64,000 nucleotides of DNA from Candidatus Kaiserbacteria bacterium (GTDB lineage Bacteria > Patescibacteriota > Minisyncoccia > Phycocordibacterales > UBA2100): the NCBI GenBank assembly GCA_016432285.1, contig CP066682.1, positions 352,933-416,932 of the forward strand, in the 5' to 3' direction. Made by a program: the position numbers and the translations under genes. The notes under the pieces are model-generated. The model did not search any database and had not been told where the DNA came from. It was given only the letters and a program-made list of their open reading frames with translations. Shown piece by piece: positions 1,479 through 50,157 of the stretch (the stretch's first letter is position 1; each line of letters begins with the position of its first letter).

Positions 1479-3845
1479 CTAGTACCCCTTGTTGCGAATG
1501 AGGATCTCGAGGAGTTGGCGCGGGAAAATTTGCGGCGATTCCGTGAGGGCCTGGTGGTAAAGCACAGTCGAGGGGGTGAGGCCTGGGAGCGTGTTGATCT
1601 CGATGATCGTCAGCTCACCCGTCCGGGTATGCACGAAGGCGTCGATGCGCGCATAGCCCGTGATACCGAGCTTTCTCGCGAGGCGTTCGATGCGCTCGCG
1701 GATTTTTTTGACGACCGCGGGCTTGATGACTTGCGGCGGTGGCGGCGTGAGGTTGACGCCGGTGCCGCCCTGGAATTTTTCTTCCACCGAAAGCACCTCG
1801 CCTTCGGCGACGGTGATAGAGGGGTTCAATGCGTGGATGCCGCCGGTTTTGCCGATTACGCCGATCGTGATCTCCACGAGACCGCTCTTTTTTGTGTGCT
1901 TCAGCCTGTTGTCGATCACGCGCAACGTGTCGGTCTCGATGAAGCGCTCGAAGATGAGATAGGGCGGCGCGGAGGGCGGCATGTCGATGATCGTCGTTTG
2001 GTTTTTGAAAGTACCGGGGTGCGCGTGCGCCGCGCGCGTGCGCACGAGCGCCAGGTAGGCCACGAGGTCGGAAGGCCCGTAGAGATGCACGACACCGGTG
2101 GAGCAGCCGTCGCCCCGGGGCTTTACGATGAGCGAGCGCGAGTGCAGCTCCTTCAAGGACGCGTGCCAGAATTTGCGCAGCGAGGCGTCGCTCATTTTGA
2201 GCAGCTCCGCCGTCTCCGCTATTTTTCCGGGGACGGCCCCGACGCCCTCGAGCTCGAGCGAGCGGACCTGCTCGGAGGTGGCCCATTTGTCGATGCAGAG
2301 CTTCGATGCTTCGGCGTCGGGGCCGTTCATCGGAATCCCGCGCTTTTGCATGAGTGTCTGGAGTGTACCATCCTCGCCTTCTCCCCCGTGGAGCGCAGCG
2401 AAGAGAAAGCGCGTCTCTTCCAAAAGCTCGTCGAGCGTCATGTGCGCGGGCTCGAAAAAGGTGGCCGCGTCTTTTTTGGCGGAAAAGCCGAGGTGGAGCC
2501 GGGCGCGCTCTTCGTAGGAGCGGAGCCGCTCCCTCGTGCGCGGATATTCCCGGCAGTTCTGGCTGATTTCCTCAACCGTGTGGTTCAAGGTGAGGTGATA
2601 CGGCAGGCGCCAGACGCTACCATCCGTATCAAGAAGGAATGGGCGGGGTTCGTAGGTGGGCGAGTTGCGCAGCTTCAGCCACACGTTGGTGCCGCTCATG
2701 AGCGACACCTGCCGCTCCGAAGTAGGGCCGCCGAAGAGCACTGAAACGGGTTTGCGCTCGGCTTTCGCAACCGACTTCTGCTGTGGCATCCTGAGGCTAT
2801 GCCGACGCGCTGCCGAACCGAGGATGTAGCGCAAGACGTCGCTGTGCGTCATGCCGACACGCGATCCCTGCTGGAAAAGGAAGCTGTTCTGCTCCATGCC
2901 GGAGACGGTGTTGAAGTCGCAAAACCAGATCTCGCCGGAAGGAAGGATCCATCCGTCGAATCGCGCGAAGTCGCGCATCCCGAAAAGCGCGAAAAGCTGC
3001 TCGGCTTGCGCCTGAATGCGCTCGATCGAGGCATCGTCGAATCGCGGCGGCGAATGGTAAGAGACGTGGCGCGAGGGAAGGTACTTCTTCCGGAAATCGA
3101 AAATCTGATGCTCGGCGTAATCGGTCTCGATCTCGGTCGGGGGGAGCGCCACGGGAATACCGAAGCGGTTTTGCAAAATAATCACCGTGAATTCCTTCCC
3201 CTCGGCAAACGGCTCCAAAACGAGCCGCGTGTCCATGCGTTTTGAAAAGAGCATACGCGCTCTCTCGAGGACCTCTCTTGGGGAGCCGACAGAGAAGACT
3301 CCGATCGACGAACCGCCACTTGCGGGCTTGATGACCGCGCGCTTGATCTTATGCTCATCAAAAAACTTCCGCGTGATCGAAGCGTGGTCGCGCCCGTATA
3401 TTTTCAGCACGACCGACGGCAGCGTGAAAAATCCATTCTCCCGGATGTACTCGTTGCCCGTGTGCTTGTCGAACGCCTTCTTGCAGCTTTCGGATCCTGA
3501 TCCGACAAACGGAATCTTGTGCTTTTCGAGAAATGCCTGCACGCCGCCATCTTCGCCATAGCTGCCGTGCATCACCGGAAAAACGATGTCGGTGCGACGC
3601 AGGGCTCGGACGAACTGTGCGGTACCGAGGGGTTTCGCCGTTTGCTTCAGCTTGAAGTCGAAATCGGAGGGAGTGTTGCTGTAGAGCTGGGCAGGGGAGA
3701 TCGCGTAGGCATTGCGTTTCTGGTCGAGGTAAAAGGGCACGATCTCAACGGAATCCGATGAGAGGTGATCGAGGACGGAGCGCGCCGAATTGAGCGATAT
3801 ACCGCGCTCCAGCGAGGGACCTCCGCAAATCAGTCCGACCTTCAT
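1479..3845 (-). CDS. ddl: tandem-fused double D-alanine--D-alanine ligase (two complete Ddl/ATP-grasp modules in one 788-aa polypeptide)
   Basis: Module 1 begins MKVGLICGGPSLERGISLNSA. Module 2 begins ~aa 385 with PVSVLFGGPTSERQVSLMSG. Both have ATP-grasp cores, and module 2 ends with the typical Ddl C-terminus (..INTLPGLT..S). Confidence 0.8.
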   Translation of the reverse strand: MKVGLICGGPSLERGISLNSARSVLDHLSSDSVEIVPFYLDQKRNAYAISPAQLYSNTPSDFDFKLKQTAKPLGTAQFVRALRRTDIVFPVMHGSYGEDGGVQAFLEKHKIPFVGSGSESCKKAFDKHTGNEYIRENGFFTLPSVVLKIYGRDHASITRKFFDEHKIKRAVIKPASGGSSIGVFSVGSPREVLERARMLFSKRMDTRLVLEPFAEGKEFTVIILQNRFGIPVALPPTEIETDYAEHQIFDFRKKYLPSRHVSYHSPPRFDDASIERIQAQAEQLFALFGMRDFARFDGWILPSGEIWFCDFNTVSGMEQNSFLFQQGSRVGMTHSDVLRYILGSAARRHSLRMPQQKSVAKAERKPVSVLFGGPTSERQVSLMSGTNVWLKLRNSPTYEPRPFLLDTDGSVWRLPYHLTLNHTVEEISQNCREYPRTRERLRSYEERARLHLGFSAKKDAATFFEPAHMTLDELLEETRFLFAALHGGEGEDGTLQTLMQKRGIPMNGPDAEASKLCIDKWATSEQVRSLELEGVGAVPGKIAETAELLKMSDASLRKFWHASLKELHSRSLIVKPRGDGCSTGVVHLYGPSDLVAYLALVRTRAAHAHPGTFKNQTTIIDMPPSAPPYLIFERFIETDTLRVIDNRLKHTKKSGLVEITIGVIGKTGGIHALNPSITVAEGEVLSVEEKFQGGTGVNLTPPPPQVIKPAVVKKIRERIERLARKLGITGYARIDAFVHTRTGELTIIEINTLPGLTPSTVLYHQALTESPQIFPRQLLEILIRNKGY

Positions 3846-10630: not shown

Positions 10631-10963
10631 TTGGATATGGCAAAAGAAGCGAAGAAGGGCAGCAAGGTAAACATCGAGCCGGTAGGCGACCGGGTGCTTG
10701 TAAGGCGCATGGACGTGGATGAAAAATCGCCGTCCGGCATTATCATTCCCGACACGGCGCAGAAGGAAAAGTCGAAGCGTGGCGTGATCGTCGCGGTCGG
10801 CCCCGGCAAGTACGGCGATGAGGCCGACCTCATCCCCATGACGGTGAAGGCCGGGCAGAAAGTGTTCTTTAATTCCGGCTGGGACAACGAGATCAAGATG
10901 GAAGGCGACGAATCCGAATACTTCCTGATCCACGAAAGCGACATCCTCGCGGTTATCAAATAA
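10631..10963 (+). CDS. groES: co-chaperonin GroES
   Basis: Typical GroES (VGDRVLVRR.D.DEKS.SGIIIPDTAQEK...G.VVAVGPG). It lies immediately upstream of groEL. Confidence 0.9.
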   Translation: MDMAKEAKKGSKVNIEPVGDRVLVRRMDVDEKSPSGIIIPDTAQKEKSKRGVIVAVGPGKYGDEADLIPMTVKAGQKVFFNSGWDNEIKMEGDESEYFLIHESDILAVIK

Positions 10964-10972
10964 GCACACACC

Positions 10973-12619
10973 ATGGCAAAAAAAGTAATTTTTGAACAAG
11001 ACGTCAGAAGCGCCCTCAAGCGCGGCGTTGACATCGTCGCGAATGCGGTGAAAGTAACGATCGGCCCGCGCGGCCGCAACGTCGCCCTCTCCAAATCGTG
11101 GGGAGGCCCGACGATCACCAACGACGGCGTCTCGATCGCGAAAGAGATTTCACTCGAAGACAAATTCGAAGACATGGGCGCCTCGATCGTCAAAGAGGTG
11201 GCCACGAAAACCAACGACAAAGCGGGAGACGGCACGACGACCGCCGTGGTGCTCACGCAAGCGATCGTCCACGAAGGCCTGAAGCGCACCGCGCTCGGCG
11301 CCAACGCCATGATGGTGCGCCGCGGCATCGAAGCGGCCGCCAAAGATGCAGTGGAGGAACTTCGCAAAATGGCGAAACCGGTGAAAGGGAAAAATGAGAT
11401 CAAACAAGTGGCTTCGATCTCCGCCGAATCGGAGGAGCTCGGCAAGACCATCGCCGAGGTCGTCGAGAAAGTAGGCAAAGATGGCGTCGTAACGGTGGAG
11501 GAAGGCCAGACGACCGCAATTGAATACGAATACGTGGAAGGCCTGGAGTTCGACAAGGGATATGTTTCCGCGTACATGATCACCAACGCCGAGCGCATGG
11601 AGGCGGAAGCCAAGGATGCGCCGATTCTCGTTACGGATAAAAAGATTTCGACGGTGAAAGACATCCTGCCGCTTTTGGAAAAAGTGGCGCAGGCCGGCAA
11701 GAAGGAGCTCGTGATCATCGCCGACGACGTGGATGGGGAAGCGCTCACCACGTTTGTCTTGAATAAATTGCGCGGCGGCTTCAACGTGCTCGCCGTGAAG
11801 GCTCCCGGATACGGAGATCGCAAGAAAGAAATGCTCGCCGACATCGCGATCACGGTGGGCGCGCAGGTAGTTTCTGAAGACCTTGGAATCAAACTCGAGA
11901 CAGCGGAGCTCTCGCAGCTCGGCCGCGCGCAGCGCGTGGTGGCCACGAAGGATTCGACGGTGATCGTCGGCGGTAAGGGCAAGAAGTCGGAGATCGAGGC
12001 GCGCGTCGCATCGCTCCGCAAGCTCGCCGAGAGCACCGACTCGAAGTTCGACAAAGAAAAACTCGACGAGCGCGTCGCCAAGCTCTCGGGCGGCGTGGCG
12101 GTGATCCGCGTGGGAGCCGCGACGGAAACTGAAATGAAATATCTCAAAGACAAAATCGAAGACGCGGTGAATGCGACGAAGGCCGCGATCGCCGAAGGCA
12201 TCGTGCCGGGCGGCGGAGCCGCGCTCGCGAAGGTCTCGGAAAAATTGGGCAAGAAGGTGAGCGCGAGCGCGCACGACGAATACACCATCGGCTACCGCAT
12301 TCTGCTTTCTGCGCTCTCCGCACCCTTCCTCCAGATCGCATACAACTCGGGCCGCGAAGACGGCGTCGTGCTTCTGAAGGAAATCGCCCACAAAGGCGGC
12401 AACTTTGGATTCGATGCCTCGAAAGACGCGCGGGAGGCGCACATCGTTGACATGTACGAGGCGGGAATCATCGATCCGGTGAAGGTAACACGAAGCGGTG
12501 TGGAAAACGCTGCTTCCGCTGCGGCCGTGCTCCTCACGACAGAAGCCGCCGTTGCCGACCTGCCGGAAGAGAAGAAGGCCGCGCCGGGCGGTATGCCGGG
12601 GGGGATGGACGAAATGTAA
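10973..12619 (+). CDS. groL: chaperonin GroEL (Cpn60)
   Basis: Full-length Cpn60 with AGDGTTTA, the GGM-rich C-terminus and conserved domains throughout. Confidence 0.95.
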   Translation: MAKKVIFEQDVRSALKRGVDIVANAVKVTIGPRGRNVALSKSWGGPTITNDGVSIAKEISLEDKFEDMGASIVKEVATKTNDKAGDGTTTAVVLTQAIVHEGLKRTALGANAMMVRRGIEAAAKDAVEELRKMAKPVKGKNEIKQVASISAESEELGKTIAEVVEKVGKDGVVTVEEGQTTAIEYEYVEGLEFDKGYVSAYMITNAERMEAEAKDAPILVTDKKISTVKDILPLLEKVAQAGKKELVIIADDVDGEALTTFVLNKLRGGFNVLAVKAPGYGDRKKEMLADIAITVGAQVVSEDLGIKLETAELSQLGRAQRVVATKDSTVIVGGKGKKSEIEARVASLRKLAESTDSKFDKEKLDERVAKLSGGVAVIRVGAATETEMKYLKDKIEDAVNATKAAIAEGIVPGGGAALAKVSEKLGKKVSASAHDEYTIGYRILLSALSAPFLQIAYNSGREDGVVLLKEIAHKGGNFGFDASKDAREAHIVDMYEAGIIDPVKVTRSGVENAASAAAVLLTTEAAVADLPEEKKAAPGGMPGGMDEM

Positions 12620-12679
12620 GGTTTGAAGGGAAAAGTTTTCAACGCGGCCGCCCAGCAGGGCGGCCGCTTCGCGTTATGA

Positions 12680-15600
12680 TTGAAGCACATGGGAACAACG
12701 ACCCGTGGAATTTTCAGTGTTGCGTTTTTCCTGATTTTCTACGCCTTTTTTCTTGTGCCACCTGCGGTGGCTACAATCGACGACTCCGCCGATCGAACGT
12801 GCGTGCCATTTCTTGCTGTATGCGGATGTGGTGAGACGTTGCAAAACAATACGTGCGTGAAGGTAACTTCCGAAAACACCGGTCTTAAGTCCAACGGTGT
12901 CAACATGAACGGATGCAAGTGCCAGAGCACGGAAAAACCGGCGGGTGGCACTTGCAGAGCGGTACGGGATTGCAAAGGAGAATGGTACGAGCAAAACGGC
13001 AAACGGGTCAACATCGATCCGAACGCCGAGAAGAATTTCGCGGATCTTTTGAAAGGACTTCCAAATCAACCTCCGAGCGGAGGTTCGGGACAGCAAGGGG
13101 GCGCTACACCTGATCTCTCGCCGCCGCAGCAAGCACCTTCGGAAACGAGCGATCATCAGGATTCAGAAAGCATTCAATCAGCGTTTGATCCTCTAACAGG
13201 GCAACCAATCGATCAGGGGAAGTCCGGCGATCAAAAGAATTGGGGCGAACTTCTTTCGGAGGACGAGTGGAATGATTTGGTAAAGCAAGATCAAAATCTG
13301 AGCAATCAATATCCGCCACCGACGCTGGACGAGGCGACACGGCTGCAACCAGGCTCGCCGGATACGCCATTTGATGTAGCGAAAATTGATCCGATCACGG
13401 GAGAGCCGACATACAGTGGTTTTCAAAACGGTCCGGTCCCAAACGATGAAACTGCTTCGGGGGATGAACCACGATCCGAACCGTCGTGGATGGATTCGGT
13501 CCGTGACTATGCCGGGAAAGCGTGGGACGCGATCAAGAATGAATTCGGCGGTGAGGCGGAGGCGGGTCAGGGATGCCCGAAATACAATTGTTGGGGCATC
13601 AAAAACGGCGGCAGCGGATATCAAAAATTCGGATCGGAAGAGGCCGCAGCCACACGATATCTTTCGAACTGGAAGGACTATGTCGACAAGGGATACAACA
13701 CTGTCGACAAGTATCTCAACCGATGGGTTGCCCCGAAGGAAGCCGGGACGGATCCCGAATACTATGGCCAGTATGTAAACGGAGTAAAACAAGCGATTGG
13801 CGGAAATCAGCTTGAGGCGGGCAACGCGGAGCAGGCGATCTCGATGATGAAAGCGCAAGCCCTCTACGAGCAGGGGGTCTCGGGCAGGAGCTTTCCGATC
13901 TCGGATCAGGCGATCGAGGCGGCTGCGCAACGAGTATTCGGATCGAGCTATTCCCGGGGGCCGGTGGAAGATATCGGCCCGGGAGCGGGAAGGAGTTTTG
14001 CCGCCGAGAGCTACGGCGACACGGATCGCTTTGCGCCGACGGAGGCACCCGCATGGGTGGCATCGACTCCCGGATCGACACCAGCTGATCTCGGTCTGCA
14101 ATCTGGGGTCTCTCCGTTTGGGTGGGGCAACAATTTCGACTCATACGGAGAGCCGTCCGATTCGCTCGTCGCGCAAACCGGTCCGGAAGAAACGTACGTA
14201 CCAAACGAGATCGCAAGCGGCGCGTTCGACATCGGTCCGCAGGATGTGCCGCCGCCTGTCCTCACAGACGCGCAAATCGGGGGAGGGTACAACGACCCGG
14301 ATTTCGACCCGTTCGGCGATTTCAATACGCCGGTAAACGAGCCCGCGACAGCGGACGCCGGGGATCAACAGCGCAACGAAGTCGATATTGCCGCCAACGA
14401 CGCCGAACGACAGGCGGAAATTGAGAGAGCACGAAACGAAGTCGACATCGCGGCCAACGATGCGGAGCGGCAGACGGAATTGGCTCGTGCCGAGGAGCGG
14501 CGCAACGAAGTCGATATTGCCGCCAGCGACGACGAGCGACGCCCGCTCCAGCCGAATCGCCAAGCGATCGAGCAGGCGCAGCGGGAGTATGTGGACGACT
14601 ACTTAAAGGAGTACGAGCAACGCCGTGAAGCGCAGCAACAGGCTGTAGCCAATGCGCAGAAGCAGAAGGCGCTCGACACCTTGAACGCGGCCGCGGCCGA
14701 TGTGAAAGATCGTGCCAATTCGATCGCGCAGACGGTCCGCGATCCGCAAAATCTCGACGTCAAGGATCTCGCCGCCGACGTGAAGAGCGCCCCCACCGAG
14801 CTCGCGCGTCTTCGCGCCGCCGCGCGCGAGGCGCTCGATAAGGGAGCGATCTCCAAAGAGCAGTACAACAACGTGATACGCGGGTCGGAAACGCTTCAGG
14901 GGATGGTCAGTGAGTACGCGAAGAATGACAAATATTTCAGCGAAGAATATAAAGGCCAGGTGCAAGGCGCTTTGCAGGGCAGGATTGAAACCGGCGAGAC
15001 GCGGGATCAGCTTGCGAAAGCCGGCAGCGCACTCGCGCAGGTAACCGACGTTCCGAAGACGTACACGCCGCCGCCGCGCACGCTCGGCTCAGACGCGAGC
15101 TCCGGCGTGAGCGATGCGGGGTACAGCCAGTCGCAGTCAGAAGGGTTGATCGACGGCGGCGCACTCGACTCGGGCTTCGGCCTCTCCTCGCAGCAGGTGG
15201 CCTCGCTCTACGACCAGCTCGAATTGGACGCGCAGGCGGATCAGCTGGTCGAGAGTGGGGCTCTCGACTCGGGCTTTGGCCTCACGTCGCCCCAGGTCGC
15301 ATCGCTCTACGACCATCTCGACTTGGAGAATAAAGTGGAGGGGATCGACTGGACGTCGGTTTCTTTCCACAGTCCATATACCGACACCGGTCTTTCGGAG
15401 GACATCAACGAGCAGATCCGCCTCGCGGCCGGTCCGCAGGAGTTCGTACCCGAAGAGCCGTTTGTGGAGGCGCGGCCTGATCGGAGCGGCCCGAACGATC
15501 AGGTTGCGATCAACGACGACAATCAAGTATTGCCGCTTGGTCAAAACAAGGAGGAGCTCGATCTTGAGCGGGGAGAATATGCGAAGTGGGACGACATCGT

Positions 15601-16822
15601 CCACTTTGCCGACGCGAAATCGTGGAACGACTTTGGGCAGGATGAGACGGATCGCAATTACCGCACCCCAGGCTTCCCGTCGGCTGCCGGTATCGACAAG
15701 GTCGCCGACGCGATCAGGGATGCCTCGAAAAACGTACTGGACGCATTTCGCAGCTCGGACGTGGAAGATGCGATCAAGAATTACAAAAGCCCCTACGGAG
15801 ACTACTTCGGCAACTACCTACAGTCACCGGATCCGTTCTCTCAAAGCGGCGAAGATCTGACGCGGCAGGTGCTGGCGTCCAACATTCCCGCGTCCGATCG
15901 CTTCACCCCAAGCGGGGAAGCGATTACTGAGGATGTCCTCGGGTCCAACTTCGCGCCGGTCGATTCGTCGGATCGAAGCGGCGAGGCGCTCACGCAAGAT
16001 GCGCTCGATTCCAGTTTCATCCCACCCGATTCGTTCGATCAGAGCGGGGAGGCTCTCACCGAATCCATCTCACTTTACAATCTGGCGGAATCGCAAAAGC
16101 TCATCGACGAAGGCTCGCTCGATTCTGGCTTCGACGGCTTCACCGGGGAGCAGGTAGCCGAAGCCTACCGAGACTACGCGCTGCGGAATACCGATTGGGA
16201 TCGACTCGTCTTGAACGACGACGTGCCGCAGGAAACACCTGAGGCCGATGTTTCCGATATACTGCCCGCGGATCCTTCCCAAATCGTTCCCGTAACGAAA
16301 CTCGCCGCACCAAATCAACTTATACCGAACGTGCCCGAGAAGCCGGCCGACGAGGTCAGTGCCGCCGACAAAACGGACGCGCAGTCTCCCGAAACTTCCG
16401 CCGAGGAAACTCCTGCGCAAAAGCCGCAGCTTCCAGCCGCCTGCTTCGGGCCGTCGGTCGCCGCGTGCAGTAAGGCGCTCGGCAAGGAGTGGAGCGAGAG
16501 CCGCAACGAGATCGCAAAGGATCTCGGAGTGAGCTGTACGCCCGGAAGCGCTTCCTGCAACAGGCAGATCCTAAAAGCGATCGTGGACCAAGGGGGCTTA
16601 CCACCGCCTTTGCCGCAGCCTCGAGATCCGTACTCGCGCGCGGCGCAGAATTATCCGACAGGGGACTCGCTCGTCAATTTCCTGAAAGCGGGAGGACTCC
16701 CGAGCGACTACCTCAGCCGCGCCGATTTCGCGAAGGAGAACGGCATCGACGGCTACAAAGGCACCGCGGCGCAAAACCTCCAGCTCCTCCAGTGTCTCCG
16801 AGACCCTTCCTGCAGGAAATAA
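12680..16822 (+). CDS. very large (1380 aa) secreted/surface protein: signal/TM anchor, N-terminal Cys-rich module, long acidic low-complexity region with several tandem repeat families, and a C-terminal Cys-containing module
   Basis: N-terminal hydrophobic segment (IFSVAFFLIFYAFFLVPPAVA). A Cys-rich segment spans aa 40-110. Tandem repeats include NEVDIAANDAERQxE (x3) and GALDSGFGLxSxQVASLYDxLxL (x2, with a third degenerate copy). The C-terminus has CFGPSVAACS...SCTPGSASC...LQCLRDPSC. Confidence 0.7.
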   Translation: MKHMGTTTRGIFSVAFFLIFYAFFLVPPAVATIDDSADRTCVPFLAVCGCGETLQNNTCVKVTSENTGLKSNGVNMNGCKCQSTEKPAGGTCRAVRDCKGEWYEQNGKRVNIDPNAEKNFADLLKGLPNQPPSGGSGQQGGATPDLSPPQQAPSETSDHQDSESIQSAFDPLTGQPIDQGKSGDQKNWGELLSEDEWNDLVKQDQNLSNQYPPPTLDEATRLQPGSPDTPFDVAKIDPITGEPTYSGFQNGPVPNDETASGDEPRSEPSWMDSVRDYAGKAWDAIKNEFGGEAEAGQGCPKYNCWGIKNGGSGYQKFGSEEAAATRYLSNWKDYVDKGYNTVDKYLNRWVAPKEAGTDPEYYGQYVNGVKQAIGGNQLEAGNAEQAISMMKAQALYEQGVSGRSFPISDQAIEAAAQRVFGSSYSRGPVEDIGPGAGRSFAAESYGDTDRFAPTEAPAWVASTPGSTPADLGLQSGVSPFGWGNNFDSYGEPSDSLVAQTGPEETYVPNEIASGAFDIGPQDVPPPVLTDAQIGGGYNDPDFDPFGDFNTPVNEPATADAGDQQRNEVDIAANDAERQAEIERARNEVDIAANDAERQTELARAEERRNEVDIAASDDERRPLQPNRQAIEQAQREYVDDYLKEYEQRREAQQQAVANAQKQKALDTLNAAAADVKDRANSIAQTVRDPQNLDVKDLAADVKSAPTELARLRAAAREALDKGAISKEQYNNVIRGSETLQGMVSEYAKNDKYFSEEYKGQVQGALQGRIETGETRDQLAKAGSALAQVTDVPKTYTPPPRTLGSDASSGVSDAGYSQSQSEGLIDGGALDSGFGLSSQQVASLYDQLELDAQADQLVESGALDSGFGLTSPQVASLYDHLDLENKVEGIDWTSVSFHSPYTDTGLSEDINEQIRLAAGPQEFVPEEPFVEARPDRSGPNDQVAINDDNQVLPLGQNKEELDLERGEYAKWDDIVHFADAKSWNDFGQDETDRNYRTPGFPSAAGIDKVADAIRDASKNVLDAFRSSDVEDAIKNYKSPYGDYFGNYLQSPDPFSQSGEDLTRQVLASNIPASDRFTPSGEAITEDVLGSNFAPVDSSDRSGEALTQDALDSSFIPPDSFDQSGEALTESISLYNLAESQKLIDEGSLDSGFDGFTGEQVAEAYRDYALRNTDWDRLVLNDDVPQETPEADVSDILPADPSQIVPVTKLAAPNQLIPNVPEKPADEVSAADKTDAQSPETSAEETPAQKPQLPAACFGPSVAACSKALGKEWSESRNEIAKDLGVSCTPGSASCNRQILKAIVDQGGLPPPLPQPRDPYSRAAQNYPTGDSLVNFLKAGGLPSDYLSRADFAKENGIDGYKGTAAQNLQLLQCLRDPSCRK

Positions 16823-16872
16823 GACACTTGGCTTCAAATAGAAAAGGAGAGTCGTTGTGATAGAATGGCGGC

Positions 16873-17430
16873 ATGACAGCCTGGATCGTCGTCGGCATTC
16901 TCGTCCTTGTCGCGCTGTGGCTCGTGTGGGCGTACAACAACTTCGTGCGTCTCACCAACCGCTCCGAAGAGGCGTGGTCGGACATCGACGTGCAGATGAA
17001 GCGCCGTTACGACCTCATCCCGAATCTCGTGGAAACAGTGAAGGGCTACATGACGCACGAGCGGCAGACCTTGGAGAGCGTGACGGAGGCGCGCACGAAG
17101 GCCATGGGAGCGCACAGCGTGGGCGAACACGCGCAGGCGGAAAATATGCTGACGGGTGCTTTGAAAACTTTGTTCGCCGTGGCGGAGAGTTATCCGGATT
17201 TGAAGGCCAACACAAATTTCGTGGAGCTCCAGCGCGAGCTCGCGGACACCGAGAATAAAATCCAGGCCGCCCGCCGTTTCTACAACAGCGTCGTGCAGGA
17301 TCTCCAAAACGCACTCGAGCAATTCCCCGGCAACCTCGTCGGCTCTACCTTCGGCTTCAAGACGCGCGAGTTCTTCCAGCTCGATGCGGGCGAAGAGGCT
17401 GCGCGACAGCCCGTGAAGGTGAGCTTCTAG
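16873..17430 (+). CDS. lemA: LemA family membrane protein
   Basis: N-terminal TM followed by the LemA signature (YNNFVRL...EAWSDIDVQMKRRYDLIPNLVETVKGY..HE..TLE.V..AR). Confidence 0.85.
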   Translation: MTAWIVVGILVLVALWLVWAYNNFVRLTNRSEEAWSDIDVQMKRRYDLIPNLVETVKGYMTHERQTLESVTEARTKAMGAHSVGEHAQAENMLTGALKTLFAVAESYPDLKANTNFVELQRELADTENKIQAARRFYNSVVQDLQNALEQFPGNLVGSTFGFKTREFFQLDAGEEAARQPVKVSF

Positions 17431-18138
17431 CTACCACTTCGCTTTTGAGTAGTCGATGGGCTTCGCGTAGAAGGAGTGTTTGTCTACGTAGCCAACAACG
17501 CGCAACGATTTGAAAAGCTTCTTGGTTTTCTCGCTCATGCGCTCTTCCTTCGGGTCGTGCTCGTTCCAGTCGGTGCGTTTGTAGAAAAGCGCGCTCGTGG
17601 GAACATACGTGATCTTGGAGAGCTCCCGTACGATGTGTGCAGGCTCCTTGCCACGCATAAACGTGCCGAGTATTTCTTGCAGTTTTTTCACAGCCTCCTG
17701 ATCTTCTGGAGAGACGCGCACTTTCTCGTCTCTCGTCCACGAAAACTGGTTTTTGGCAAGGATCACATCGCGCAGCGTGCGGCCAAACTCTCCGGCGGCG
17801 AGCCGCGCGAGTGTTACCTGCACCACCCCAAGCTGTCCCAAGGGGGACTCGCCCTTCGCCTCGTGGTAGACGTTTTCTGAAAGCAGGGTGAGATCCTCTT
17901 TTGAGTAGAGCTCCTGCTGCGCGCGCTCGATTTTTGCACCCTCACGAGCCTGCGCCGGCCCAGCATCGCTCACGGCTGCACCCGCATATACGGTGCCCGC
18001 CGCAAGGAGTGTGCGCAGCACTTTGACAGTTTCTTGAAGCGAAGGACCTTGCCCAGAAGAGGATTCATCTTTCAAAAAATCAGAGACCAATTTTTTTGCA
18101 CCCTCGATGCGCGAGCGGTCGATTCTGTCCATCCCCAT
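17431..18138 (-). CDS. cell-wall hydrolase, SleB/Hydrolase_2-like domain protein
   Basis: YHEAKGESPLGQLGVVQVTLARLAAGEFGRTLRDVILAKNQFS matches the SleB-family catalytic domain. It is convergent with lemA. Confidence 0.55.
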   Translation of the reverse strand: MGMDRIDRSRIEGAKKLVSDFLKDESSSGQGPSLQETVKVLRTLLAAGTVYAGAAVSDAGPAQAREGAKIERAQQELYSKEDLTLLSENVYHEAKGESPLGQLGVVQVTLARLAAGEFGRTLRDVILAKNQFSWTRDEKVRVSPEDQEAVKKLQEILGTFMRGKEPAHIVRELSKITYVPTSALFYKRTDWNEHDPKEERMSEKTKKLFKSLRVVGYVDKHSFYAKPIDYSKAKW

Positions 18139-18197
18139 GCCACAAGTATAGCCTTCATTCTGGATTCTTTCAGTCCGCGAGAGTATGATGACCGGCT

Positions 18198-19097
18198 ATG
18201 GCATCCCTCTACACCGAAAAGAGCAAGAACATCCAAAAGACGTGGCTTTTGATGGGCGTCTTTCTCGTCCTCATCATCGCAATCGGATATTTCGCCGGGT
18301 GGTACCTCAACAACCCTTCTATTGTATACATCGCGGTCGCATTTTCGCTTTTCATGAACGTCGCGGCGTACTGGTTTTCGGACAAAGTCGCGCTTGCCGC
18401 CACTGGCGCCAAGGAAGCTGATCCGAACCAGTTCCGTGAGCTGCATCGCATGCTCGAAAATCTCGCGATCACCGCGGGCCTTCCGAAGCCGCGGCTCTAC
18501 GTGATCGACGATCCGGCACCGAATGCCTTTGCCGCAGGAAGGAATCAGGAGAGGGCGGTCGTGGCCGTCACGACAGGCCTCCTCGGCCAGCTTGAGAAAG
18601 CGGAGCTCGAGGGAGTGATCGCGCACGAGCTCTCACACATCGGCAATCGCGACATTCTCGTGATGACCGCGGCGGTCGTGCTCGCCGGATTTATCGCGAT
18701 CATCGCCGACATATTCCTCCGCATGAGCTTTTTCGGGGGAGGAGGGGATCGCGACAACCGCAATCCCTTGTTCGCGATTCTTGGTATCGTGGCCATCATC
18801 GTGGCCCCGATCGCGGCGCAGCTCATACAGCTCGCCGTCTCGCGCCGCCGCGAATTTTTGGCCGACGCCTCGGGCGCGCTCCTCACGCGCTACCCCGACG
18901 GGCTCGCATCGGCCTTGAAAAAGATCGCGAGCTACCAGGCACCGATGAAAAGGGCCAACCACGCCACCGCGCACCTCTTTATTTCGAATCCCTTCGGCGC
19001 GCACGAGGCCGGTCGCTTTATCGCCAAGATCTTCAGCACCCACCCGCCGGTGGAGGAGCGCGTGGCGGCCCTCGTGGGGTTGCGCGGGCAGATCTAG
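18198..19097 (+). CDS. htpX: zinc metalloprotease HtpX (peptidase M48)
   Basis: HELSHIGNRD (HExxH), four TM segments and M48 topology. It lies near lemA, a common association. Confidence 0.9.
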   Translation: MASLYTEKSKNIQKTWLLMGVFLVLIIAIGYFAGWYLNNPSIVYIAVAFSLFMNVAAYWFSDKVALAATGAKEADPNQFRELHRMLENLAITAGLPKPRLYVIDDPAPNAFAAGRNQERAVVAVTTGLLGQLEKAELEGVIAHELSHIGNRDILVMTAAVVLAGFIAIIADIFLRMSFFGGGGDRDNRNPLFAILGIVAIIVAPIAAQLIQLAVSRRREFLADASGALLTRYPDGLASALKKIASYQAPMKRANHATAHLFISNPFGAHEAGRFIAKIFSTHPPVEERVAALVGLRGQI

Positions 19098-19100
19098 CGG

Positions 19101-19106
19101 TATACT
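19101..19106 (+). promoter_or_regulatory. TATACT -10-like box (cggTATACT) heading a short transcription unit
   Basis: Same extended -10 consensus as upstream of rnpB and the tRNAs. It is followed 28 nt later by GGGAGG and an ATG. Confidence 0.4.
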
Positions 19107-19133
19107 GAAAACGGTCATACGTGGGAGGTCAAG

Positions 19134-19337
19134 ATGACCGAAATCGTTGATGCGAAGAAGTTCTTCGAGCGGAAGTGGCTTTTTAATGAGAGGCGGAGAG
19201 CGCAGAACCGTGCTCCCCGGATGCAGGAAGATGCGCAGCGCATCCAATTCCCTTTATCGCAAACGCCCGAGCAGCGGCGGCGTAGCAATGAAAGGAGTGT
19301 TCGGGAAGTGCAAGCGCGGATCGTTCAGGATCAGTGA
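19134..19337 (+). CDS. small (67 aa) highly basic Arg/Gln-rich ORF, function unknown
   Basis: A good SD (GGGAGG) lies 6 nt upstream of the ATG. GC3 is consistent with coding. No homolog recognised. Confidence 0.3.
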   Translation: MTEIVDAKKFFERKWLFNERRRAQNRAPRMQEDAQRIQFPLSQTPEQRRRSNERSVREVQARIVQDQ

Positions 19338-19347
19338 GGAGTGTGTG

Positions 19348-19500
19348 ATGAATGTTCTCTACGTGGGAGCGTACTTGATCGCTCACGGGCGGGGCAGAGA
19401 GTACCGCGAGCGTGCGCGAAGATTGCGAGTCGCTCGCCGGGCGCAGCGGCGAAGCGCTCGCGAAAGCAGGGGATTCAGCAAGCGCTTCCGTCGAAAATAA
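19348..19500 (+). CDS. small (50 aa) ORF: short hydrophobic N-terminus followed by an extremely Arg-rich tail
   Basis: An SD (GAGGAG) lies 7 nt upstream of the ATG. It is immediately followed by a strong terminator. No homolog recognised. Confidence 0.25.
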   Translation: MNVLYVGAYLIAHGRGREYRERARRLRVARRAQRRSARESRGFSKRFRRK

Positions 19501-19514
19501 TCGAAAGTTAAGGT

Positions 19515-19542
19515 GGGCCGCTTCGGCGGCCCCCTCCTTTTA
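19515..19542 (+). terminator. rho-independent terminator (ggccgcTTCGgcggcc + CCTCCTTTT)
   Basis: Perfect 6-bp GC stem with a tetraloop, followed by a T-run. Confidence 0.6.
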
Positions 19543-19724
19543 ATAGGAATTGGAATGCGATATGCTCAGTGCGCGAGGAGGGTTCGAATCCGAATCGAGG
19601 ATTCGAAAGCCGGAGGCGCGTCGGCGCCGAGGCGGGGTCGCGGAAATTTTCAACAGAAAATTATCCCTGACCGCATAGTGGGCTTGTTATACGATGTTTG
19701 TCGGCTCGGTTTGCAGATATACAC

Positions 19725-30465: not shown

Positions 30466-30555
30466 AACCCACGGTTCTCAGCGGTCGACCTGCGCGCACT
30501 CGGTCGACCTGCTCTCCGTCACGGGAAAACTACAGTTTTCCCGACCCCTTTCGAA
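30466..30555. repeat. copy A of a conserved ~90-nt structured intergenic element (perfect 9-bp stem hairpin cgggaaaac-N4-gttttcccg at 30522-30543)
   Basis: Shares aacccacggttYtc...cacgggaaaacNNNNgttttcccgacccctttcRaa with copy B at 35082-35160. The middle segment differs between copies but is palindromic in both. Confidence 0.7.
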
Positions 30556-34999: not shown

Positions 35000-35073
35000 G
35001 CCCAGATAGCTCAGGTAGTAGAGCATTCCCCTGAAGAGGGAAGGGTCGTCAGTGCAAATCTGACTCTGGGCAC
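35000..35073 (+). tRNA. tRNA-Phe (anticodon GAA)
   Basis: Acceptor GCCCAGA/TCTGGGC, D-arm GCTCAGGTAGTAGAGC, anticodon loop CTGAAGA, T-arm GTCAGTGCAAATCTGAC, discriminator A. Confidence 0.85.
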
Positions 35074-35081
35074 CTCTTGGA

Positions 35082-35160
35082 AACCCACGGTTTTCCAACG
35101 CTCGCTTCGCGAGCTGTCTTCCTCCACGGGAAAACAATTGTTTTCCCGACCCCTTTCAAA
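35082..35160. repeat. copy B of the conserved structured element (hairpin cgggaaaac-aatt-gttttcccg at 35127-35148), 8 nt downstream of the tRNA-Phe 3' end
   Basis: Aligns with copy A (30466-30555). Flanks and hairpin stems are identical. The central segment holds a different palindrome (gctcgcttcgcgagc). Confidence 0.7.
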
Positions 35161-43227: not shown

Positions 43228-43782
43228 ATGGCGACACAAAAAATATTCGTGTGGATAGCGGGTGTGATTATCATCCTCGGCGGCGGCTACTTCCTCTTCT
43301 GGGGCAGCGCACCGAAATCGGATGACTCGATGATGAAAGGGGAGACGATGGAGCAGAAAGATGCGATGCAGGCTGGGGGACAGACGATGCAGAAAGATGA
43401 AATGATGCAGAAGGAAGACGGCGCGATGATGGAAGGAGATACAATGATGGAAGGCGACGCCATGATGCAAAAGAGCGGCTCGTATGAGGCGTATGCTCCC
43501 GAAAAGCTGGCGAGGGCCGAAAGCGGCGACGTCGTACTTTTTTTCCGGGCGTCGTGGTGCCCCACCTGTAAGGCGGTCGACACCGATATTCGCGCGAATC
43601 TCGGTTCGATCCCGGCTGGGCTCACGATCCTCGACATCGACTACGATAACTCCGCGGCGCTGAAGCAAAAGTACGGCATCACCTACCAGCACACTTTCGT
43701 GCAGGTGGATTCTAAGGGTACTCTGATCAAGAAGTGGAGCGGTTCCCCGACGCTCGCCGCGCTCGCGCGGGAGGTGCAATAA
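43228..43782 (+). CDS. membrane-anchored thioredoxin-like protein (WCPTC) with a ~50-aa Met-rich linker
   Basis: N-terminal TM. The linker MMKGETMEQKDAMQAGGQTMQKDEMMQKEDGAMMEGDTMMEGDAMMQK contains 14 Met. A Trx fold with a CxxC follows. Confidence 0.7.
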   Translation: MATQKIFVWIAGVIIILGGGYFLFWGSAPKSDDSMMKGETMEQKDAMQAGGQTMQKDEMMQKEDGAMMEGDTMMEGDAMMQKSGSYEAYAPEKLARAESGDVVLFFRASWCPTCKAVDTDIRANLGSIPAGLTILDIDYDNSAALKQKYGITYQHTFVQVDSKGTLIKKWSGSPTLAALAREVQ

Positions 43783-43784
43783 GC

Positions 43785-45515
43785 ATGGTATTGCTTCTCG
43801 TCTCGTTCGTCGCCGGCGTGCTGACCGTGCTCGCTCCGTGCGTGCTGCCGCTCCTTCCCGTCATCGTCGGCGGCTCTTTGGCGGGCGGATCTCGCCGGCG
43901 CGCGTATGTGATCACCGCATCGCTCGCGCTCTCGATCGTCGTCTTCACGCTCGTGCTGAAGGCCTCGACCGCGCTCATCGGGGTTCCTGAAGAGATCTGG
44001 CGGTATCTTTCTGGGATCATCGTGATGGTCTTCGGCCTCTTTCTCCTTTTCCCCGACGTGTGGGCCTCAATTCCCGGCGTGAACGCCTTGAATATCGGCT
44101 CGAACAAGCTGCTGGCGAGAGGGTATCAAAAGGGGAGCTTCTGGGGAGACGCGCTCATGGGCGCTGCGCTCGGCCCAGTGTTTGCCGGCTGCTCGCCGAC
44201 CTACTTCATCATTCTCGCGACCGTGCTTCCGGTACAGCCGCTTGTCGGGATCGTGTATCTCGCAGCATACGCCGCGGGCCTCTCGCTCATGCTCCTCTTG
44301 ATAGCGTTCCTCGGGGATCGACTCGTGCAAAAGCTTGGGATCACCATCGAGCCGAGGGGATGGTTCCGGCGTGGCATTGGAGCACTCTTCGTGATTGTGG
44401 GCGTACTGGTTTTCACCGGCGTGATGCGGGACATCGAGGTGTGGTTCGTTGAAAAGGGACTGAACTTCAGCCAACTCGAGTATTTGCTCCTTGGCAACGA
44501 AGAAGCGCGTGCCGCCGCATCGGTCACGGATCTTTCGCCCGAAGCGAAAGCGACTGCCTACGAGAAGGCGCCCGAGCTTGTCTCTCCCGCGGGTTACCTC
44601 AACACGGAAGGCGAGCCGATCACACTCGAGAGCCTCCGGGGCAAAGTGGTACTGTTGGACTTTTGGACGTACAGCTGCATCAACTGCCAGCGCACCTTCC
44701 CGTACCTGCGGATGTGGTACGAGAAGTACAAAGATCAGGGCCTTGAGATCGTCGGTATTCACACGCCCGAGTTCGCTTTCGAAAAAGTGAAAGCCAACGT
44801 CGAGAACGCCGCCACCCGTTTCGGATTGACCTATCCGATCGTGCAGGACAACGACTACGAGACCTGGCGTGCATACGGCAATCAGTACTGGCCGCGAAAG
44901 TATCTCGTCGATATCGACGGTTACATCGTGTACGACCACATCGGCGAAGGCGCATACGAGGAAACCGAGCAAGCGATTCAGCGCGCGCTCGCGGAGCGGG
45001 CACGGCGACTCGGGCAGGAGATGCCGCAGCAAGCGGCTGGTGAGGCTCCGGAAACGGTCGCCGTTGAGCCGGGCCGTGTCGGAAGTCCGGAAATCTATTT
45101 CGGATCATCTCGCAACGAGTACCTCGGCAACGGGGTGCAGTATCGAAGTGGCACGCAAAATTTCACGCTTCCAGATCGTATTTTTCCAAATGTTCTTTAC
45201 CTCGGCGGCAGGTGGGAATTTACCGACGAGGCCGCTCGCAGCGCGTCGGCGGGCGCGGAGATCCGCTTTACGTACACAGCCAAAAACGTCTACCTCGTGG
45301 CCTCGGCAGAGAGCGGCGTGCGAATCAAAGTAACGCACGATGGGGGAAAGGCTCTCGGTGCGACGCGCGGGGCGGATGTCGATGCAGACGGGTACGTGAG
45401 AGTCACTGAAAGTGGCCTCTACCACCTCGTGGAGAATGATGACTACGAAACGCACCTACTGGAGATCACGATTGAAGGCGCGGGGCTCGAGGCGTACACC
45501 TTCACCTTCGGCTAG
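43785..45515 (+). CDS. DipZ-like fusion: CcdA/DsbD-type transmembrane electron transporter + thioredoxin-like (TlpA/redoxin, CINC) domain + C-terminal beta-rich domain
   Basis: The N-terminal 6-TM part has the two CcdA Cys (LAPCVLPLLP and FAGCSPTY). The middle has WTYSCINCQRTFP. The C-terminal ~190 aa is beta-rich, as in mycobacterial DipZ. The ATG at 43785 lies 2 nt after the upstream stop. Confidence 0.75.
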   Translation: MVLLLVSFVAGVLTVLAPCVLPLLPVIVGGSLAGGSRRRAYVITASLALSIVVFTLVLKASTALIGVPEEIWRYLSGIIVMVFGLFLLFPDVWASIPGVNALNIGSNKLLARGYQKGSFWGDALMGAALGPVFAGCSPTYFIILATVLPVQPLVGIVYLAAYAAGLSLMLLLIAFLGDRLVQKLGITIEPRGWFRRGIGALFVIVGVLVFTGVMRDIEVWFVEKGLNFSQLEYLLLGNEEARAAASVTDLSPEAKATAYEKAPELVSPAGYLNTEGEPITLESLRGKVVLLDFWTYSCINCQRTFPYLRMWYEKYKDQGLEIVGIHTPEFAFEKVKANVENAATRFGLTYPIVQDNDYETWRAYGNQYWPRKYLVDIDGYIVYDHIGEGAYEETEQAIQRALAERARRLGQEMPQQAAGEAPETVAVEPGRVGSPEIYFGSSRNEYLGNGVQYRSGTQNFTLPDRIFPNVLYLGGRWEFTDEAARSASAGAEIRFTYTAKNVYLVASAESGVRIKVTHDGGKALGATRGADVDADGYVRVTESGLYHLVENDDYETHLLEITIEGAGLEAYTFTFG

Positions 45516-48801: not shown

Positions 48802-49281
48802 CTACTCAAACTGATGTCCGATAACGTTGTCGGGATCGGATTTATTGAAAAGCTTTTCGCTGCCCTCAAGAAGGTACACACTTTTGATGCCCGCATCGAT
48901 CATCGTGCTCCAGCACGGCTCGCAGCACCACCAGTGGCCCCATAAATACAAATCTGCGCCCTTTGTATCTGCGCCGCTCTCCTTTGCGTTGCGGATCGCG
49001 GATGCCTCACTGTGATTCTCGTAGCCGCAGCCTGCGCAGAGCTCGTATCCGGTGCCCGTCGGGACGTTGTGCTTCTCACGCTCGCAGCCGTTTGTGTGCG
49101 GACCGGCGCCGATCGATCCGCGACCAATGATCGCGCCGTCTTTCACGATCACCGCCGCGCCCACGTGCCGGATCGTGTTGTTCTCCTTCGCGAAATCGCG
49201 CGCCGCCGCCATCCACGGATTCTCGAGGCGTACATACTCGATCGATCGGCCGGCGGGAAGATACGGGTAGGGGATCGTCAT
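48802..49281 (-). CDS. dCMP deaminase (cytidine/deoxycytidylate deaminase family)
   Basis: HSEASAI ... CCEPC zinc-binding motifs. The ORF-track entry 48802..50178 is chimeric: its 5' 900 nt is antisense to thyA. The start was trimmed to ATG 49281 (MTIPYPY). Confidence 0.85.
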   Translation of the reverse strand: MTIPYPYLPAGRSIEYVRLENPWMAAARDFAKENNTIRHVGAAVIVKDGAIIGRGSIGAGPHTNGCEREKHNVPTGTGYELCAGCGYENHSEASAIRNAKESGADTKGADLYLWGHWWCCEPCWSTMIDAGIKSVYLLEGSEKLFNKSDPDNVIGHQFE

Positions 49282-49305
49282 TGCCAAAATGTAGCACGTA
49301 GTACA

Positions 49306-50154
49306 ATGAGTCTCCTTATGGCCCGGTTCGACGAGATCTACCAGGAGATGCTCGGGAAGATCATGAAAGAGGGCGTGCGGCAGGTTTCGGGCCGCAACCA
49401 GCACGAAACGGTCGCGATCCCGGGGATGCACTTTTCGATAGACGTGGAAAAGGAGGGCTTCCCGCTTCTCACGCTCCGCAAGATACCGGTCAAGATGTTC
49501 GTGGCGGAGCAGATCTGGTTTATCGCGGGAGTGCGGAAGCCGTCGGATTTTTTGGAGGATTTCACGAAAATTTGGAATGAGTTCACGAATCCCGCGGGCG
49601 TCGTCACGGTGGCCTACGGCTACCGCTGGCGCAAGCACTTCGGCCGCGATCAGCTCGGCCTCCTCGTGAAATTGTTGAAGAAGGATCCGAGCTCTCGCCA
49701 CGGCGTGATCGTTACATGGGACCCCTCTGAAGACGGACTCGGTGGCACCAAAAGAATGAACGTGCCATGCCCGTACTCGTTTACCGTCAACATCATCGGC
49801 GGGCGGCTGCACCTCCACAACATCGTGCGCTCCAACGACATGGTGCTCGGATTTCCATCCGACGTCGCGGGCTTTGCGCTTTTGCAGTGCATCCTCGCGC
49901 AAAAGCTCGGCGTCGCTCCGGGCATATACAGCCACTCGATCTCCAACGCACACGTCTGGGACAATCAGTATCCGGTTGCCGAAGAGCTCTTGAAGCGAAA
50001 AAGCGAACATCCTGCGATCAAAGTGGTGTTGCCCAAAAACACGTTCGATCGCGCGGAGAAAAAAGACAAGAAATTGGTCGACGAGATCGTGAATCCGATC
50101 GCCGCGCAGTACCAGCCGCTTCCCGCGATTTCCGGCATGCAAATTGTGCTTTGA
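49306..50154 (+). CDS. thyA: thymidylate synthase (ThyA, folate-dependent)
   Basis: ThyA motifs (RLHLHNIVRSNDMVLGFPSDVAGFALLQ, PCPYSF). The start is ATG 49306 or the in-frame ATG at 49318 (MARFDEIYQ aligns with E. coli M1). A -10-like TACAAT overlaps the start. Confidence 0.9.
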   Translation: MSLLMARFDEIYQEMLGKIMKEGVRQVSGRNQHETVAIPGMHFSIDVEKEGFPLLTLRKIPVKMFVAEQIWFIAGVRKPSDFLEDFTKIWNEFTNPAGVVTVAYGYRWRKHFGRDQLGLLVKLLKKDPSSRHGVIVTWDPSEDGLGGTKRMNVPCPYSFTVNIIGGRLHLHNIVRSNDMVLGFPSDVAGFALLQCILAQKLGVAPGIYSHSISNAHVWDNQYPVAEELLKRKSEHPAIKVVLPKNTFDRAEKKDKKLVDEIVNPIAAQYQPLPAISGMQIVL

Positions 50155-50157
50155 GCA

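Follow-up and report, generated by a model that had tools for sequence, protein, structure and literature searches.

The endolysin of phage Enc34 is muralytic in vitro; its fold resembles the alpha-lobe of lysozyme, with a catalytic Glu131 and important Trp79 and Tyr95 residues, and the activity of a GH73-like N-acetylglucosaminidase has been argued for it (PMC8943055). The DUF3597 unit is listed among the presumed wall-binding types of Bacillus phage endolysins and is experimentally uncharacterised (PMC11674121). Among candidate phyla radiation (CPR) bacteria, the predator Vampirococcus has secreted peptidoglycan hydrolases and giant surface proteins that are proposed for use on the host (PMC8080830). 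The gene described here lies in a Candidatus Kaiserbacteria chromosome, at 12680..16822 on the + strand of a 64-kb stretch of DNA (64,000 nucleotides; the window), and encodes a protein of 1380 amino acids (aa). On balance the gene probably encodes a Sec-exported modular peptidoglycan hydrolase of the Candidatus Kaiserbacteria cell, most likely a surface wall-cutting protein rather than a structural adhesin or S-layer protein. It was compared with 80 GroEL loci, each with 10 kb of flank, by local tblastn, blastp and iterated hidden Markov model (HMM) searches; the position between groEL and lemA, in which the gene lies, is called the slot.

The segment aa 292-420 (13553..13939, +) is assigned to the Enc34/PHA02564 lysozyme-like endolysin family by profile matches, predicted fold and residue conservation. 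A four-sequence family profile (A2) matched two PDB entries, the phage protein Gp29 (9vvp chain L, 1295 aa, residues 4-117) at E 1.9e-16 and the catalytic domain of the phage Enc34 endolysin (7q47) at E 0.02. With a profile of the window segment plus P0002 the values were E 3.5e-18 for 9vvp and E 9.1e-11 for 7q47. P0002, the sole match of the mid-domain alignment in a word-indexed protein search, is a 169-aa protein with a C-terminal membrane helix and thus the Enc34 layout. The window segment alone reached 9vvp at a borderline E of 0.0067; at E 3e-3 to 9e-3 it also matched phage proteins, eight in all, that bear the annotation lysozyme, transglycosylase or internal virion protein. The relatives of the domain are matched by PHROGs annotated as endolysin, tape measure protein and tail injection transglycosylase. 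An exhaustive HMMER search collected 8532 cluster representatives at E <= 1e-3, most of which are proteins of 150-200 aa or have the domain embedded in proteins of 600-1300 aa.

An AlphaFold model of the domain, built with a 50-sequence alignment, is all-helical with five helices and a mean predicted local distance difference test (pLDDT) of 76; 72 of 147 residues exceed 90. In a fold search the sole confident PDB match was 7q47 (probability 1.00, template modelling score 0.55-0.59), the next best entry having a probability of 0.08. Against viral models the matches were virion proteins, including "internal virion protein D". The HMM alignment superimposes E397 (13868-13870, +), W349 (13724-13726, +) and Y365 (13772-13774, +) on Enc34 Glu131, Trp79 and Tyr95, respectively, and E397 is the putative catalytic residue. 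In the family alignment E397 is invariant (50/50), Y365 is kept in 49/50, and position 349 is aromatic in 50/50 (Y in 39, W in 9, F in 2), the window having W. A short Cys-x4-Cys insertion (C299, C304) follows the sequence KNEFGG and precedes a conserved W-G.

The last 130 aa are filled by two units, an internal duplication of a ~45-aa unit, which appear to be a pair of DUF3597-type units of the kind found in Bacillus phage lysins and presumed to bind the wall. Unit 2 (aa 1318-1380; 16631..16819, +), the putative peptidoglycan-binding unit, has the canonical motif S-x-V-x-F-L-x(3)-G-L-P-S-D...Y-x-G-T-A-x-Q-N-x-x-L-L. Unit 1 (16430..16579, +) is a Cys-substituted variant (C1255, C1263, C1286, C1293) that is also present in locus L017 and in P0152. 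The C-terminal Cys residues number six (1255, 1263, 1286, 1293, 1372 and 1378); the preliminary description of this DNA had given the module four. Eight of eight aligned family members matched DUF3597 weakly, and the module matched PHROG 2307 "L-alanyl-D-glutamate peptidase" at E 3.3e-11 and the PDB entry 2gqb at E 1.2e-4. A tblastn search with the last 63 aa returned 114 phage records, all of them Bacillus phages (best 49% identity over 55 aa, E 1e-8), and lysin or endolysin genes underlie nearly every match listed. In one such Bacillus phage lysin, Amidase_2 precedes two C-terminal DUF3597 units. The opinion that the protein has no obvious characterised homolog was therefore wrong for two of its modules, the Enc34/PHA02564 domain and the DUF3597-type pair.

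The protein is predicted to be exported, having a Sec-type N-terminus that contains its sole membrane segment. The signal peptide (aa 1-31; 12680..12772, +), read by rule from the sequence, has the n-h-c layout, with a basic n-region (K2, R9), a hydrophobic core of 16-18 aa within aa 10-27 and a cleavage site of the form AVA/T. A second hydrophobic segment was not found anywhere in the 1380 aa, in agreement with the single signal or anchor segment described before. A motif scan showed neither an LPXTG-like or other sortase motif (the C-terminus reads ...LRDPSCRK) nor a lipobox at the N-terminus, and both sortase and lipoprotein anchoring were rejected. Searches of Pfam and NCBIfam with the whole protein gave nothing significant, including no SLH or other S-layer domain. 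The adhesin or S-layer-like identity that had been suggested found no such family there and no sortase motif. The full protein had one match in a word-indexed set of 5.8 billion proteins, the identical fragment P0001, and two metagenome contig scans, one with the whole protein and one with the N-terminal module of the window and L002, found no relatives.

Both recognisable modules are phage-typical (PHROGs 873, 2276, 7182 and 2307; Gp29 in the PDB; the Bacillus phage lysins), as they would be if the gene were a prophage remnant whose product was a tape-measure protein, or one for DNA ejection, that contained a lysin domain. This origin is very improbable. Against it stand the Sec signal peptide of the protein, a neighbourhood of groESL, lemA, htpX and further housekeeping genes that is free of phage genes, and the related secreted proteins that occupy the slot in dozens of genomes. 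In addition, a scan of viral contigs with the mid-domain family alignment found no relatives.

Between the signal peptide and the enzyme domain lies the third module, a Cys-rich stretch at aa 32-105 (12773..12994, +) that was delimited by the iterated HMM and a 22-sequence alignment (A3) and is the hallmark of the slot family. Of the 16 Cys in the whole protein, eight fall at aa 41-98, two at aa 299/304 and six at aa 1255-1378. The eight of the N module (aa 41, 48, 50, 59, 79, 81, 92 and 98), which the preliminary description had recognised correctly as a Cys-rich terminal module, follow the signal peptide in the pattern A-[DN]-x-x-C ... C-x-C ... G-x-C-x(5)-C. Alignment A3 has C41, C81 and C92 in every sequence and C98 and G90 in at least 90%; outside those positions the 22 sequences have 16-39% identity to the window copy. 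The local iterated HMM detected the module in 23 syntenic ORFs (open reading frames) and in the window's own copy, which scores E 1e-24, and the stretch common to the protein and the slot ORFs is aa 21-101. A search for the module in other proteins, as had been proposed, thus gave the 23 syntenic slot ORFs and none outside the fetched GroEL loci. No relatives were found in Pfam, PHROG or the PDB, and a chimeric alignment of the N and C modules yielded one match, P0152, in the word-indexed protein search. Since the word-indexed searches were nearly empty, the module has no relatives there outside the fetched GroEL-anchored loci, and it is taken to be new and lineage-specific. Elsewhere in the window, a 593-aa protein (43734-45515, +) consists of a DsbD/CcdA-type membrane domain fused to Redoxin and Thioredoxin_10; this DsbD-thioredoxin fusion, a thiol-disulfide system of the extracytoplasmic space, could service the disulfides of Cys-rich secreted proteins.

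The slot is highly variable and its flanks are conserved. The gene is preceded by groES-groEL (10631-12619) and followed by lemA (16873-17430), a SleB-like hydrolase gene (17431-18138, -) and htpX (18198-19097). The window GroEL has 84-87% identity to genomes labelled Candidatus Kaiserbacteria or Paceibacterota (CPR or Patescibacteria; metagenome-assembled). In the set of 80 loci, groEL and lemA are less than 1 kb apart with no gene between them in 21 and 1.2-9.6 kb apart in 27; in another 11, lemA is not found within 9 kb or more of groEL. One, two or three ORFs, all on the same strand, make up the insert, their lengths ranging from 300 to more than 3291 aa. Among the 69 slot ORFs that reach 300 aa, 45 show a signal-like segment together with four or more Cys in the first 140 aa. 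The window protein, with its signal peptide and N-module pattern directly downstream of groEL, is a member of the slot family so defined. Identity in the flanking LemA and HtpX is 65-91%, but the slot proteins can be aligned only within their modules.

The window protein shares only separate modules with the large post-groEL ORFs of other genomes. The mid domain (aa 292-419 here) also occurs in L001, L056 and L064, at the quite different positions aa 292, 2108 and 1383, and the ~88-aa C-terminal module (aa 1288-1374) in L004, L013, L017 and L011. The N module is the only part common to nearly all proteins encoded at the slot. No further recognisable domains were found in the large slot proteins of other genomes, save a sub-threshold DEAD-helicase match in L056. 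The slot protein of L056 (13631-21604, +) is at least 2657 aa long and runs off the fetched locus; it has the N module, an Enc34-type domain at aa 2108-2225 and, at aa 1159-1302, the match to Pfam DEAD/DEAH helicase (E 4.2e-5, 23.8 bits against a cut-off of 26), which is odd for a signal-peptide protein. Two or three tandem slot genes, each with its own signal peptide and Cys-rich module, are found in L009 (3843-12196), L031 (11710-21614), L053 (12329-21618) and L017 (11766-16952), and they point to local duplication besides replacement. A diversity-generating retroelement does not explain the variability of the slot, as no template/variable repeat pair is present in the 64-kb window. The slot being empty in 21 related loci, a gene at that position is dispensable across the lineage. 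Of the two outcomes that the preliminary description had named as speaking against it, dispensability in relatives is partly borne out by these 21 genomes; no known adhesin or S-layer family was matched in Pfam or NCBIfam.

From the domain homologies, the conserved catalytic residues, the architecture, the synteny and the variability of the slot the following course of action can be proposed, in which the enzymatic activity, the binding to walls, the part played by the N module and the identity of the target cell are inferred. The signal peptide (aa 1-31) would be removed on export. The disulfide-rich N module (aa 32-105) would serve a function common to the family, for example retention on, or hand-over to, the envelope of the producer. 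The Enc34-type domain, with E397 as its putative catalytic residue, would cleave the glycan strands of peptidoglycan, and the two C-terminal units would hold the protein on peptidoglycan, as presumed for the Bacillus phage lysins. The ~800 aa acidic, repeat-bearing stretch between the enzyme and the binding units would act as an extended spacer. As the slot content is replaced, shuffled or absent while the flanks are conserved, a host's or neighbour's wall is a likelier substrate than the producer's own, and the protein probably acts at the symbiont-host interface.

A self-directed autolysin would have the same two functional ends. It would remodel or split the producer's own wall, for cell separation or for the passage of pili or machines, and the C-terminal units would hold it on that wall. 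The organism does synthesise peptidoglycan, as MurJ and a double Ddl in the window imply, Gram-positive autolysins are as a rule built from an enzyme domain and a domain that binds the wall, and a second wall hydrolase gene, the SleB-like Hydrolase_2 at 17431-18138, is two genes away. Housekeeping autolysins are normally conserved, however, whereas this slot is empty in 21 related genomes and elsewhere encodes proteins with scattered modules. The enzyme domain is found in only 4 slot proteins, and a ~1000 aa acidic spacer is unneeded for acting on the own wall. Autolysis is possible though rather doubtful, and a role directed at a host or neighbour is preferred to it because of the presence/absence pattern, the mosaicism and the long spacer.

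Several results weigh against a wall-cutting protein directed outward. The window copy is the most divergent copy of the enzyme domain seen, and the window's own mid domain had no match in PHROG or Pfam. In the window, KNEFGG (aa 286-291) stands as a degenerate form of the R-N-N-N-P-G-N motif, which is conserved to at least 90% across the 50 aligned sequences, and the NNPGN-equivalent segment of the model has a pLDDT below 50. Because the AlphaFold model was built with the family alignment, its fold match is no independent evidence for the assignment made from sequence. At the C-terminus the match to Pfam DUF3597 (PF12200; E 2.6e-5, 25.2 bits) is below the 29.8-bit gathering cut-off. Structure prediction, which had been suggested for the terminal modules, could be carried out there with two sequences and gave a low-confidence model (pLDDT 60) with which a fold search was uninformative. 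Peptidoglycan binding has no experimental demonstration for any DUF3597 member (PMC11674121). With the enzyme domain confined to so few slot proteins, wall cleavage is not the common function of the family.

The degenerate NNPGN motif and the low pLDDT there mean that the domain could be a non-catalytic glycan binder. The whole protein could then be a non-enzymatic surface fibril or adhesin, binding glycan by the lysozyme-like domain together with the DUF3597 units and using its repeats as a filament. The divergence of the domain, the long, acidic and repeat-bearing chain, and a slot family defined by the N module and not by an enzyme would all suit such a fibril, and attachment is the role assumed for the giant surface proteins of CPR bacteria (PMC8080830). 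Yet the domain retains the catalytic Glu together with both key aromatics, and survival of all three would be surprising if it had decayed. The protein also has no known adhesin, S-layer or sortase feature. A fibril or adhesin is thus considered unlikely, and a peptidoglycan hydrolase remains the preferred reading of the gene.

The large databases searched gave nothing closely related beyond an identical copy, and the G+C content at third codon positions (GC3) of the gene is 0.67 (0.50-0.58 in the first 290 codons) against 0.72-0.82 in core neighbours, as might be seen in a chance ORF or a decaying pseudogene. Such an explanation is regarded as excluded. The ORF described before at 12680-16822 (+) is real: the frame is open for 1380 codons, uninterrupted for 4.1 kb, and the three modules are conserved as protein in other genomes, including their Cys and catalytic residues. 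The start codon is a TTG that abuts the preceding in-frame TGA, with an in-frame ATG alternative three codons in, at 12689. The identical copy lies on the Logan contig L081, which has 100% identity to window positions 11695-19657 and therefore carries no information on variation.

Beyond a handful of cultured Saccharibacteria, little is known of the means by which ultra-small CPR cells recognise hosts and open them, and we know of no cultured member of the Kaiserbacteria. The locus is a concrete and testable candidate in this respect, a phage-type wall-cleaving domain and phage-lysin-type units being combined in one protein predicted to be exported. According to a tentative and at present rather improbable generalisation, the slot is a dedicated site at which cassettes for host-interaction proteins are rapidly exchanged, and in which a conserved signal peptide and Cys-rich "handle" are joined to shuffled payloads, some of them derived from the lysis and DNA-ejection proteins of phages, as with the Enc34-type lysozyme and the DUF3597 units. 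If so, the slot content would set which host wall an episymbiont lineage binds and breaches, and the slot would be the cellular counterpart of phage receptor-binding and lysin modularity. If slot proteins set host range, comparison of slot content with co-occurring taxa could predict the hosts of uncultured lineages.

The remainder of the protein consists of linkers, repeats and stretches of biased composition. The protein is strongly acidic (225 D+E against 117 K+R), as had been noted. Linker 1 (aa 106-291; 12995..13552, +) is an acidic low-complexity stretch with a net charge of -19, 68% P/G/S/Q/N/T/D/E and the lowest GC3 of the gene, and linker 2 (aa 421-563; 13940..14368, +) has a net charge of -20. 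Repeat A (NEVDIAANDAERQ; 14369..14557, +; aa 564-626) has three copies of ~20 aa, RNEVDIAANDAERQ, at aa 564/584/607, and is also present as 5 copies in L022 and 3 in L001. It is followed by a non-repetitive A/Q/K/E-rich stretch (aa 627-800; 14558..15079, +) that is probably helical, judged from composition only. Repeat B (15134..15331, +; aa 819-884) consists of two 33-aa units (GALDSGFGL..QVASLYD) at aa 819/852, with related units in L011 and L047. The ~170 aa of aa 885-1055 (15332..15844, +) have no detectable relative. Repeat C (15845..16108, +) has four 22-aa units (SGEA[LI]T-x-D-L-x-S-x-F) at aa 1056, 1078, 1100 and 1122 and ends at aa 1143, and its last unit overlaps a degenerate third copy of repeat B (aa 1137-1169; 16088..16186, +). 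No match to PDB sequences was found for aa 423-1244 (822 aa).

All repeat pairs stand out against shuffles (z = 4.5-20). Repeat A with its three copies, repeat B with two and a degenerate third at aa 1137, and the SGEA(L/I)T repeat, counted here as four units, all lie where the preliminary description had placed them. Its picture of a ~1000-aa repeat-laden middle held for the three repeat families; it failed for the globular aa 292-420, the non-repetitive aa 627-800 and the relative-less aa 885-1055. Nor is the repeat DNA near-identical, as had been stated: copies are 41-81% identical (best cores 78-81%, whole units 41-75%), and Tandem Repeats Finder reported none of the families A, B or C, only a trivial 20-nt two-copy match at 14392-14411. 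Slippage-prone near-identical tandem repeats are ruled out by these two results, and the repeats are old and diverged. A polymorphic repeat number had been expected from near-identity; that premise is absent, and the sole other copy of the gene found is 100% identical. Repeats A-C are the only sizeable repeats of the 64-kb window besides one unrelated 51-nt direct repeat, 80% identical, at 30505-30555 and 35110-35160, which holds the hairpin GGGAAAAC-N4-GTTTTCCC. One of its copies is upstream of a GTPase gene (start 30577), the second follows tRNA-Phe (35000-35074) closely, and the two may represent a common element for regulation or termination.

The 60-nt spacer between groEL, whose stop is at 12619, and the ORF is filled by two hairpins (fold -30.4 kcal/mol, z = -2.9). 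The first lies at 12623-12642. The second (12644..12667, +) has a perfect 10-bp GC stem and a 4-nt loop, GCGGCCGCCC-AGCA-GGGCGGCCGC, with no T tail, and may be a groESL terminator or stabiliser that limits read-through into the large gene. No CIRCE heat-shock operator was found near groESL. The SleB-like gene (Pfam Hydrolase_2, E 4.7e-10) has a GC3 of 0.66, as low as that of the large gene, and is patchy, a ~43% identical copy being present at the same position in 4 of the 80 loci (L001, L002, L011 and L037). A link to the type IV secretion hydrolase of Patescibacteria (PMC12102498) was considered and rejected, having no support in the gene context. The rest of the window is ordinary chromosome, with RNase J, RNase P RNA, tRNAs, ribonucleotide reductase, MurJ, the double Ddl and purine synthesis genes, and no paralogues of the large gene were found in it. 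The double Ddl is a 788-aa ORF (1479-3845, -) with two complete D-Ala-D-Ala ligase units, a tandem fusion recognised by two matches to the N domain and two to the C domain. A 458-aa ORF (48802-50178, -) has a C-terminal cytidine/deoxycytidylate deaminase domain and also matches the MafB19-like toxin deaminase model (E 6.6e-7).

The kind of each recognisable module was already known, and the logic of an enzyme plus a binding domain is textbook. New are the combination of an Enc34-type domain with DUF3597 units, its occurrence in a giant cellular protein, apparently Sec-exported, of a CPR bacterium, the Cys-rich N module specific to this lineage, and the fixed hypervariable groEL-lemA slot. With this finding the range of the Enc34/PHA02564 domain and of the uncharacterised DUF3597 unit reaches beyond phage lysins to a secreted protein of a cell.

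In its overall logic the locus resembles polymorphic toxin and contact-dependent loci, which likewise have a conserved N-terminal export module, a long repetitive middle and shuffled modules at a fixed position, sometimes with tandem paralogues. The resemblance is one of logic only and not of membership. Unlike in those systems, the gene adjoins neither a recognised toxin domain nor an immunity gene nor a dedicated secretion system, and its variability is not confined to the C-terminus. The giants and hydrolases of Vampirococcus lugosii (PMC8080830) are likened to it by description only: a large exported protein, an ultra-small bacterium with an elaborate surface and a proposed role on the host wall. 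The Vampirococcus giants have WD40, TPR and PKD-type domains, with the hydrolases as separate proteins, whereas here enzyme, spacer and binding units form one chain that begins with a Cys-rich N module.

Profile homology to the Enc34-type endolysin (7Q47, ORF39 of Hafnia phage Enc34) and to phage Gp29 (9VVP) extends over ~120 residues. The all-helical fold, predicted for the Kaiserbacteria protein, is alike, and the Glu and two aromatics are kept. Enc34 has the domain at the N-terminus of its 26-kDa endolysin, which ends in a membrane anchor; other phages have it inside a virion or tape-measure protein, and Gp29 has it at the N-terminus; here it occupies aa 292-420 of a 1380-aa cellular protein with a signal peptide. 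The Kaiserbacteria protein also differs from the Enc34 family by the degenerate NNPGN motif and the C299/C304 insertion. The Bacillus phage lysins, in which Amidase_2 or an L-Ala-D-Glu peptidase is joined to two DUF3597 units (for example gp211 of phage 000TH008), differ in enzyme class, amidase or peptidase as against a glycosidase-like lysozyme fold, and in the distance from enzyme to binding units, ~100 residues as against ~830. Their first unit is not Cys-substituted as it is here, and the Kaiserbacteria protein would be exported by its own signal peptide with no reliance on a holin. The plan is nevertheless the same in both, one wall-cleaving domain followed by tandem C-terminal units that are presumed to bind the wall.

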